Shown in pieces: positions 33,585-54,156 of a DNA stretch of 64,000 nucleotides (positions are counted from its first letter, which is position 1; each line of letters begins with the position of its first letter). The position numbers were made by a program, and so were the translations under genes. The stretch is taken from contig OX597823.1 of assembly GCA_951406725.2 (NCBI GenBank), positions 46,872,001 to 46,936,000 on the forward strand, read 5' to 3'. The notes beneath the pieces are model-generated. The model was not told the origin of the DNA. It saw only the letters and a program-made list of their open reading frames with translations, and ran no database searches. Origin of the DNA: Octopus vulgaris (taxonomy: Eukaryota).

Positions 33585-35576
33585 AATGTATATAATGTAA
33601 TTAATGTACAGAATTGTTCATCTCAAAAATATAGAACGGGTAATTTTTTGTTTCATAGAAGTAATCATTGATGGCACCAATATCTGCACACATTGCTATC
33701 TTTCACTTCAAATCTCACATTAGTCCATGAGTGCAACCTGCAAGAAATAGCAGCCAAATAACACTCAACATTTTGCATTCGTAAAAAAAAGAAAGAACAC
33801 TTTGGATAATATTGTGTAATCGTCTGTGTGTTTGTGAATGAGAGTGTGTGTATGTGCCTGCGCGCGCGCGTGTGTGTGTGTGTGTATGTTAGAGCGCGGC
33901 GAGGCTATCCCAATATGTCACCTTCCAGTTGCAGCCTTGTAGGATGCCTGTAGTTACCCATGCAACAAGTCTCTACATGGCGGATGTTGTCAAAACGGGA
34001 AAATATCAATCCTGATACACCCTAGCACTAGTACTGCAGAAATGTGCAATTTGACAGACATTTGGCTGCTATTCTTAGCAAATTTCTCCTTCTCGCATTC
34101 TACTGACTCCACAGAACCACCGTCTTTATGTCATTTTGTTTATTTTCCTGTTGTAGTTGCCAATATTGTTGTCTATGTTCTTGTTATAGCGAAGAAGGGC
34201 ATGAAACTGGCGGTAATGAGCGAAGACATGGCTGTGTAGTTGATTAAGTTATTTAACAATTGACTATAATGTGCTATGTGTGTGTGTGTGTGTTTGTGTG
34301 TGTTTGTGTGTGTGTGGTGTGTGTGTGTGTCGCTCTCGGTATATTTACTCCTTTTATCAATATGTCGGATACGTTCTGCCCGGCATAAAAAGGCTGCTTT
34401 TCTAAAACTCCGATTTCCTTTCTCGGCTTAAACTGGCCTCTCCGTAATCGTAATTTTCTTACGATCTTCTCTTTCATGTTGTTCGATGATGACAAATCTC
34501 CAACGTTTTCTCTTGAAAATGCGTCAGGCACCATTTTACCAGTTTCAGTGATTCGAAGCCTTCAGGGATTTTTTTTGTTCCTCTTTCTGTTTGAGAGAGG
34601 AGAAAGATATATCAATACCATAGCTACATTCTTAACTTCACGACTTTTTTTTTTCATTCCCAGCCGTTTCCTTTATAATTAGTAAACTTTTCTTATGCTC
34701 ATCCCGTTTGTCCTATGCTCTTGATATAAAGAGACTTTAAACGTAGACCTGTTAAACTTATGAATTCAACGTCTGGAATAAAGTATGCAAACATATCTAA
34801 GAATGTATTTCACTATTGATATCCAGAATGCATTTTACTGGCTGTTTTAGTCTTAAGTACCTTTATATTTCGACACTCGCAAACGCGTACACACACACAA
34901 ATACATTCACACATTCTCACGCAAGTTTGTATACATATATATATATATATATATATACATAAATTAGTCTGAATGTGTTTGTGTGTGTGTGTTTTCAAAA
35001 CACGCTTAAATTTATGGAAACAGTTACAAGAGCATTTCCATTACTACTTGATTTCTCCATTACATAATTTCTAAGGTAAAATGATATTCCACACACATAA
35101 ATATGTGTGTATGTATGTGTGTATAGTATATATGTATGTGCATGTGTATAAATATACATGTATGTATATGTGTAAATAGACACAAACTTCTCCCCTTGGT
35201 TTTGTCTAAATATGAATCTGAAGTCCTTACAATTATCTACTCGACAGTTAAATCAACAGCGATGGAGCGGGGCAGGGAGAGATAGTACCAAGTATCTCGC
35301 TACTGAGTGTTCCGTTTAGCAATTATCTCTTCGAAATGAATAATATTAAAATATTGGTATCGAGGCAATTGACTGTAATATCACCTCTAATTATATGTCT
35401 CTATATCTAATCAAAGAAATCAATATGTGCATTATAATGAAGGGGACTTTAATTAAATGTACTATCACACACTGAAAATTTTGTTTGTTAATATATTGTG
35501 TTCTGAGAGGATTGTGTATATGCGTATGTATAGATAAGAACACACACACACGCATACATATACGTGCGTGTGTTTG

Positions 35577-52125: not shown

Positions 52126-53193
52126 GCTATACTACAACTTTGCTGGACGACTGAATCAAGGCCTTTCTTTTTAAACCGGTTACGGTGTCATCATTGACGG
52201 TGTACCTAAAAATAATTTCAAAATTTTCTTTGGAAATGGAGTTTGCTAGGATTCGTTTGGATAGTAGTCACTCGTTCCTTCGAATGTAGCTTTACACCTG
52301 TCGTAACTGCTTCGTTCATTTGGTAAAGTAAGTGTTTGTTTGCATGTATTGCTGTTATTGTTTGAAGTGTTACCAACATTTTGTGTGTCACTGTTAATCT
52401 ACATAGAAATATCGATATGTTTGTCTTTTGTTGAATCTTGTGTATTTGTGCTGTTTATAATTTTCGCTTTCATTTCTTTTCGGTTGGAAAAGCATGTTTT
52501 ATTTATCAATATTTTTTTATGGTAGAAGTTTCCGTTTATTGTTGTAGATGAATTCTATTGTTTAAAAATCTCCGATGAGAAAATACAAAATATCAAAAAG
52601 AAAACAAATGCTTACCTCGTTTATTTTAGTTAAAAAGTAAAACCCATTTGTTTCAAGGCCCCATTGTATTCTAAATTTAAAGAGGGAAAAATGTACTATT
52701 CACTTTGAAATAGGTAAAATATCCTTTTATAAGCCTAACGGAAACCAAGAAAAAGAATCTTTTACCGCGAAAAGAAACAATATCTTATAATATACAAGTT
52801 AGATATTCAACAAATAAAATAATAATGATTCACATCAAGGTTTGCCTTCTTAAGCAAGGATGAGAAAATACTAACTAGGATAGATAACTAGCTTCTAAAA
52901 CCGGATGCGTATCACTTCCACCATCACTGGAATTGTGACCAATGTTACCCTGGAGTCTAGGGTTTGTTTGTTTTTATTTTGTTTTGTGCTGTCTTTTCTT
53001 CACCGTCTTCCCTTTCTTCCTCTACTTCGGTTACTCAGGAAAAAAACACTTCAGATGGTACTTGCTTTCATAACTATCACTAAAGGGATGCACTGGAAGG
53101 TACTACGCCCTCAGTATTCAATGGTGTACCCTCAGATTTAGAAAATACATTATTTACATTTGATGGATATTTGTCCTCAACTTGCTTATTGTT

Positions 53194-53239
53194 AACACAA
53201 CGTTTCGGCTGATATACCCTCCAGCCTTCATTAGGTGTC
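53194..53239 (-). ncRNA. Minimal hammerhead ribozyme with a G5A mutation
   Basis: GACAC-CTAATGA-A-GGCTG...CAGCC-GAAA-CG-TT-GTGTT. Confidence 0.75.
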
Positions 53240-53473
53240 TTGGGGAAATTTCGAACCTAGGTTCTCATTCTTAAGGTATATTCTGATATTTTTTTTTTTT
53301 CCTTCTTTCTTCAAATTTTCTTCCCTTTCTCGCCGAGTGTTTTCCTTACACCTAGGGCAGAGAATCTCATTGTATGCATTCCCAGATTACACACGCAAAT
53401 TCACAGGTAAGGTATGTATTAAAAAAATTAATAAATAAATAAATTCATGAATGGATGATGTTTTCACAACGAT

Positions 53474-53520
53474 AATGCTCTGATGAAGGCTGGAGGATAT
53501 ATCAGCCGAAACGTTGTGTT
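53474..53520 (+). ncRNA. Minimal hammerhead ribozyme with intact core and altered helix I 5' strand
   Basis: CTGATGA(53480)-A-GGCTG-gaggatatat-CAGCC-GAAA-CG-TT-GTGTT. Confidence 0.8.
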
Positions 53521-54002
53521 AACAACAAACAACATGAGGACAAATATCCGTCCAATGTAAATAACGTAAATAATGTACATAATTCCTCATCTCTTAAATA
53601 TAGAACCGTATTAGAAAATATAATTTACAAGTCTTCTCGCAGCACGTTTCTTGAAGCCTGACTAACTTTTCTTCTTAAGCTATGCCCGCCGCTAAGTGGG
53701 TACACTGGATGGCACTGTCCCCTCATTATTCAATGGCACACCTTCAGATTTAGAGAGAATCTTCCCGCAATGCAGATTAGTGTTCACTCCACCATACACC
53801 AAAGTCTGGTGACGGGCCTGCTTCTGCTATTCATTCTGCAACACGACTTTCATGGTTTACATTGTTGTCTGGATACTCTGGTATAGCTCTGTAGTTTTTT
53901 GCTTTGTTTTGTCTTGTTTATTTTTAAGAGGACAAAACTAAAAGCAAGTCAGCAATCAACACCATGGCTAATACTTCTTATCACCATCCAATATTCGTTC
54001 AG

Positions 54003-54156
54003 AGTAGGAGTGGCTGTGTAGTAAGTAGCTTGCTTACCAACCACATGGTTCAGTGCCACTGCGTGGCACCTTGGGCAGGTGTCTTCTACTATAGCCTCGG
54101 GCCGACCAAAGCCTTGTGAGTGGATTTGGTAGACGGAAACTGAAAGAAGCCCGTCG

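Follow-up and report, generated by a model that had tools for sequence, protein, structure and literature searches.

The insertion described here lies in a window of 64,000 nucleotides of the Octopus vulgaris genome (the whole stretch of DNA that was analysed) and is real, old, apparently shared with related organisms and of the ordinary kind made by Penelope-like elements (PLEs), with the remnant of a LINE inside it. Of its 463 bp, 181 are the 3' end of this separate, R2-group, (TAA)n-targeting, Dong-like LINE, which the sequence-only reading had missed. The history that we favour, at a probability of roughly 0.6, is a PLE insertion that was later entered by the LINE and then lost its centre by a deletion at a 2-nt CT microhomology. 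The features of the locus are collected in Table 1.

Table 1. Features of the insertion and of its target, in window positions.
Feature	Position	Strand	Evidence or remark
Host repeat, left part; the target of the element is a unit of this older repeat (~142 bp, dispersed/tandem)	53080..53147	+	
Left TSD copy, TTAGAAAATA	53138..53147	+	Paralogue comparison and sequence; the last TA is also the end of the left arm
PLE pLTR, sense arm, ending at the short (no-tail) terminus	53146..53287	-	
Type I hammerhead motif of the minimal kind, with GACAC/GTGTT as helix I, G5A in the core and the palindrome AACGTT in the helix III region	53194..53239	-	
A-rich linker, at the site of A(n)(TAA)n in other composites: target tract of the LINE	53288..53300	-	
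3' end of R2-group (Dong/R4-like) LINE: last five codons, stop 53466-53464, 3' UTR	53301..53481	-	92.6% to near-full-length L072
CT microhomology between LINE fragment and inverted pLTR	53480..53481	.	
pLTR arm in inverse orientation, truncated 5', running from the hammerhead box CTGATGA (without the 5' strand of helix I) to the terminus with the tail	53480..53610	+	
33-nt PLE tail, on the plus arm only	53578..53610	+	Arm-end survey; PMC11167929
Right TSD copy, TTAGAAAATA	53611..53620	+	Paralogue comparison and sequence
Host repeat, remainder and beginning of the next unit	53611..53754	+	

A clean insert between 10-bp duplications had been described from the sequence alone, and its coordinates were reproduced: the two copies of TTAGAAAATA (53138-53147 and 53611-53620) enclose 463 bp, and the 10-mer has no third occurrence on either strand of the 64-kb window. 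The duplication is target DNA and not a part of the element; it is a true TSD because paralogues of the flanking ~142-bp repeat hold the 10-mer once (five of five distinct paralogous host units shown, four of them exact and one with one change, the overlapping L032 and L033 being taken as one unit), which also answers in the negative the earlier question of whether the TSD belongs to the element consensus. After the single 10-mer, the host paralogues go on as does the right flank of the insertion, and in the contigs of four sequencing runs 17 to 25 records each pass the single 10-mer into host sequence. The final TA of the left TSD copy (53146-53147) also belongs to the left arm, and the TSD may in fact be 12 bp long with one mismatch, as the paralogous targets go on with CA. 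The host repeat itself (53080-53754; L032, L035, L040) is dispersed and also forms short tandems, its copies being 70-85% identical.

Both hammerhead motifs of the insert belong to end repeats (pLTRs) of a PLE that is abundant. Ahead of the motif, other copies have a (TAA)n tract, a 76-bp tRNA-like piece and, in some cases, coding sequence, the order of the 3' region in the family being ORF, tRNA-like piece, (TAA)n and pLTR. The sequence-only reading had proposed that the family be extended to a PLE ORF, and this succeeded: among 20 loci picked by the C-terminus of the ORF (one query locus included), the pLTR lies downstream of the C-terminus of the RT ORF in 16 and the tRNA-like piece is present in 17. 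The ORF runs on into the RT (RVT_1 at E 1.2e-6 in L083, just under the cut-off), and the full-length relative P0076 matches RVT_1 at E 1.2e-11 and, weakly, telomerase RT (E 0.021). Pfam and PDB searches matched no GIY-YIG endonuclease in the PLE ORF; its translation shows the motifs VYSIPCSC..Y.GET and HH..R..KEA, which may be those of the PLE GIY-YIG endonuclease. The 76-bp piece (L079:1896-1971 in element orientation; found at most PLE 3' ends) follows the stop codon of the PLE, precedes the TAA tract and starts with a palindrome, where many head-to-head insertions join. Its label as tRNA-like is a reading of the letters, and ARAGORN called a tRNA in none of six loci with the piece.

Thirty-two distinct inverted (head-to-head) insertions of the family were compared, and 21 of them have a TSD of their own (score at least 6), all of different sequence (the count leaves out a 22nd insertion in a microsatellite, and two of the 21 are of low complexity), while 2% of shuffled flank pairs (n = 300) reach this score. 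The outer ends of 144 arms are bimodal, of which 60 coincide with the short terminus and 67 with the tailed one, with the two groups about 30 nt apart. TSDs of 8-13 bp, inverted arms and a one-sided tail of 33 nt are the published PLE footprint: PMC3846280 and PMC8557442 describe for EN+ PLEs of the Penelope/Poseidon type a 5'-truncated inverted pLTR, a tail of 30-40 nt at either end and a TSD of 8-10 bp; inverted pLTRs with a 10-bp TSD are known among them from Adineta Pen2 on scaffold 304 (PMC3846280), and the tail has been explained by two RT start sites (PMC11167929). An origin by retrotransposition (target-primed, in the earlier reading of the TSD and the inverted segment) is borne out by the true TSD at this locus and by the individual TSDs of the family insertions.

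Our insertion is like those of the EN+ Penelope/Poseidon PLEs (Adineta Pen2/Pen2a, anole PAc), as far as these are described in the same sources, in its AT-rich target, in the hammerhead in the pLTR and in a TSD within the range of 8-13 bp; unlike them, this copy has no PLE coding sequence and its interior is a LINE 3' end, and a further difference from the EN+ PLEs compared is that the hammerhead of the family is preceded by a tRNA-like segment and a (TAA)n tract. As to its first step, PMC11167929 and the family pattern are consistent with a PLE protein that would nick AT-rich DNA and start RT at two fixed pLTR sites 30-40 nt apart, so that, of two arms in head-to-head arrangement, one would be short and the other tailed. 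The formation of inverted PLE structures is called unresolved or unvalidated in PMC8557442 and PMC11167929. An old isolated piece of the same pLTR terminus with its tail is found at 33585-33637 of the window (85% identical to 53554-53606).

The inverted arms (53146-53234 and 53480-53568) are identical at 80 of 89 nt. The minus hammerhead (GACAC 53239-53235, CTAATGA 53234-53228 with G5A, GAAAC 53206-53202, GTGTT 53198-53194) reads GACAC-CTAATGA...GAAAC-GTT-GTGTT and has a complete helix I, in agreement with the earlier description of a helix I GACAC/GTGTT and a G5A change. For the plus copy the sequence likewise agrees with the claim that homology starts exactly at the CTGATGA box, which at 53480 is the first position of arm homology; LINE sequence replaces the 5' strand of helix I here, and ATGCT opposite GTGTT would form one wobble pair at most. 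The extra sequence of the plus copy, put earlier at about 40 bp, is present, and its extent could be refined to a 9-nt repeat unit plus the 33-nt tail (53578-53610).

Neither motif at this locus has an intact CUGANGA/GAAA core together with helices I and II in one strand; in the family the majority is intact, with CTGATGA in 33 of 55 motif hits (overlapping loci counted). Helix II is visible in single-strand folds of the two motifs, whose energies fall within those of shuffled sequences (z -0.15 and -1.14). Since the two motifs lie on opposite strands, one with the core mutation G5A and the other without its helix I, the hammerheads would be unable to act together, and the dimer cleavage assay that had been proposed would be uninformative on this copy. 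Rfam, searched up to E = 10 at 52900-53900, gave two matches, neither of them a hammerhead, and among the 150 of 229 matches listed for the whole window all except one sRNA were microsatellite-driven and of miRNA type, with none at the insertion locus; the hammerheads are therefore called from their motif pattern and from comparison with the minimal hammerheads of PLEs (min-HHR) described in PMC4209133. With those, the motifs share the CUGAUGA and GAAA boxes, a helix I of 5 bp, a helix II of 6 bp with a nucleotide after A9, and a palindromic helix III region AACGUU without a loop; unlike them, both copies are damaged and antiparallel, so that no dimer would form within one RNA.

The start of the plus arm at CTGATGA is no mark of ribozyme action, because LINE and pLTR share the CT microhomology at this point, and cleavage is predicted about 37 nt further downstream. 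The box was also considered as a truncation hot spot and set aside as weak: six of 35 truncated arms start at the box or one base on, and four of these six come from the insertion locus or from a query that starts there. Two other hammerhead-like sequences occur on the minus strand of the window. The one at 14085-14040 (GATG-CTGAAGA-GGAG..CTCC-GAAA-TGCAA-GCATC, with a palindromic TGCA after GAAA) is minimal and unrelated to the PLE motifs; the other, at 58908-58865 (CTGATGA, a TGAAC/GTTCA stem and a degenerate GAAA box), is possibly a decayed hammerhead of a third family.

The LINE in the interior was recognised by its relatives. Beyond 53481, the best 29 other matches go on as an ORF that ends in QKIVLTGTAHVLRRALSL and a stop codon, and L072, a copy that is broken but nearly of full length and has an RT and a zinc knuckle (zf-RVT), ends in TAA and a pLTR. 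Intact relatives have a single ORF of ~1,200 aa, and the PDB matches of a full-length relative are R2 proteins. A profile search for the restriction-like nuclease of the LINE gave no match; the domain is a putative one, read from motifs. Solo LINE copies have TAA on their 5' side in 19 of 25 evaluable cases and lack it in six, and of 29 LINE-picked copies 28 have a TAA-like tract on the 3' side (by eye) and none has a pLTR behind it, so the idea of a LINE that normally ends in a pLTR was rejected. The Dong/R4 label is a putative one that rests on target and architecture: the copies resemble RLE LINEs of this clade in the single ORF of ~1,200 aa, the RT, the zinc knuckle, the R2-like matches, the (TAA)n target and the frequent 5' truncation, and the present fragment is unlike intact Dong/R4 LINEs in that 181 bp remain. 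Targeting of TAA is described as a habit of Dong (PMC3812793), for the R4 lineage see PMC3774820, and the annotated families of Octopus vulgaris include Dong-R4 as well as Penelope (PMC13282606).

Composites of LINE and pLTR are rare. We collected 49, in BLAST-ranked samples that are biased to short linkers and are no census; the 5' neighbour of the LINE is a TAA-like tract in 30, a fused inverted PLE arm in eight, another sequence in nine, and open in two. The exact junction pattern was found at 13 places, eight of which were already among the first 30 loci, and the numbers suggest that short-linker composites amount to some tens. The class flanked by TAA (30 of the 49) represents plain nesting, often with a complete palindromic PLE centre (L071, L073, L075), and it is no surprise for an insertion to be nested at a microsatellite. 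The search for a master lineage of LINE+pLTR had a negative outcome, as the composites show no common source lineage (Mantel r -0.02, p 0.63). From the majority sequence, this locus differs at 7 of 179 positions in the LINE part and at 10 of 137 in the pLTR part, which leaves the relative ages of the two parts unseparated.

The sequence-only reading had taken the 463 bp as one mobile unit, and this did not hold: no second copy with the same junction was found among 40 scored places, and the interior is a piece of an R2-group LINE. A non-autonomous, retrozyme-like element that moves as a whole by means of its two hammerheads would account for the clean TSD, for the presence of two hammerhead motifs and for the recurrence of LINE+pLTR composites. 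We regard it as very improbable, however: besides the missing second copy, the truncation points of the LINE and the linkers vary between composites, the motifs are damaged and on opposite strands, and an anole PLE inserted in vitro without a need for hammerhead cleavage, according to PMC11167929. The locus is like the animal non-LTR retrozymes outlined in bioRxiv 10.64898/2026.07.22.740005 in being non-coding, PLE-related and provided with a type I hammerhead, and unlike them, as they are outlined there, in having no tandem monomers, no pair of intact ribozymes in the same sense and no repeated unit.

The longer arm starts with LINE sequence, as would be the case if the insertion were entirely the work of the LINE machinery on a read-through RNA and owed its inversion to twin priming. 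Yet the target here is not TAA, in contrast to 19 of the 25 evaluable solo LINE copies, the ends of the insertion coincide with the two PLE termini, the inverted piece is a duplicated 3' end rather than an inverted 5' part, and insertions that consist of PLE sequence only share the same ends and TSDs. An origin from the LINE machinery is thus scarcely credible.

A different role for the LINE would follow if the PLE enzyme had copied a read-through RNA of a LINE that already resided in the TAA tract of a PLE, the pLTR recruiting the enzyme and the LINE being cargo, with the inverted arm derived from the same or from a second RNA. This is possible, though we doubt it. Such a route has a precedent, since pLTRs suffice to move unrelated cargo in trans (an NRPS gene; PMC3846280), source loci exist in the form of L072, and eight of the 19 composites with an inverted pLTR upstream are directly fused, several of them with short microhomology and an intact TSD. 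The fraction of eight in 19 is not clearly above background, as solo LINE 5' ends lose TAA in six of 25 cases; in composites without an inverted arm, the LINE 5' end lacks TAA in nine of 28 evaluable ones.

What a read-through RNA predicts is that long inverted arms enter the LINE and never the tRNA-like part, but none of the 49 composites has an inverted arm that continues into LINE sequence. In comparable PLE-only insertions the shorter arm passes the TAA in about five of 13, and six events with none would have a chance of ~6% (hand count). Two of the eight fused arms (L010 and L018) reach the tRNA-like sequence via TAA, two stop at the TAA edge and four end inside the pLTR; in L010, the arm and the LINE are separated by a few letters in which tRNA-like sequence can be read in the sense direction. 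L010 and L018 speak for nesting, because a single RNA of LINE and pLTR would lack the tRNA-like part into which their arms run through the TAA; they would require a second template or a deletion, and the version of the read-through route with two templates would also fit them. Further points against a read-through RNA are that no TSD was seen at the LINE 5' end of the nine non-inverted composites scored (all below 6) and that there is no daughter lineage among the composites.

The nested history also meets objections. The locus itself records no lost centre, and it is from other copies that the sequence of events has been deduced; the fused CT junction looks like an ordinary PLE inversion junction, e.g., that of L096, where an inverted arm is joined directly to the RT ORF; and six of the eight fused composites, this locus included, fit a read-through RNA equally well. 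In the nested history, the Dong-like LINE would have inserted into the (TAA)n tract of the PLE ahead of the pLTR, as is shown for the family and inferred at this locus, and what was lost, either when the LINE 5' junction formed or in a later deletion of the central palindrome, would be the TAA on the upstream side, the tRNA-like heads and the inner part of the inverted arm. This copy is a fossil, with damage in both ribozyme motifs and 9 of 89 nt by which the arms have since drifted apart.

An empty orthologous allele, the search for which had been suggested, was not found (8 of 24 sequencing runs, among the joins listed). The contig of run X20 passes the left TSD by 19 letters into the insert, that of X6 (organism B) by 15 letters with a 9-letter gap, and that of X19 (organism D) enters the tail by 19 letters from the right side; these fall short of the 31 letters by which presence was scored, and they appear to point to presence of the insert in the related runs. 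X13 (organism C), with a match that reaches 10 letters past the TSD, was counted neither as present nor as empty, and X5 and X7 (contigs ending at 53149 and 53138), X2 (without a left-flank contig) and X21 (17 reads) do not inform on presence. The insertion is probably older than the split from organism B, to judge from the 9 of 89 nt at which the arms differ and the 29 of 390 flank letters at which organism B differs. Run X20 is labelled organism A, yet its flank variants are those of X6, a run of organism B.

Our searches, which covered the listings of the open literature, gave no description of a LINE that has nested in the pLTR of a PLE or is carried by one. The single locus is a decayed copy with a textbook PLE footprint and of little significance, and the class of composites is of modest use: the LINE is a natural tag on one arm, and a genome-wide comparison of the numbers of arms with and without it would test for an origin of both arms from one RNA. 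A repeated retroposition of unrelated LINE 3' ends by the Penelope enzyme, in which the LINE hits the TAA of the PLE, gains a pLTR and is carried to sites that are not TAA, seems rather unlikely to us; if it were true, L010 and L018 would be evidence that a single PLE insertion can have its arms primed on two different RNAs. Composites of this kind are liable to be mis-annotated as ribozyme SINEs. To the right of the insertion, at a distance of 380 bp, a very abundant SINE-like repeat that ends in (TA)n occupies 54004-54150 and recurs at about 16 other places in the window.
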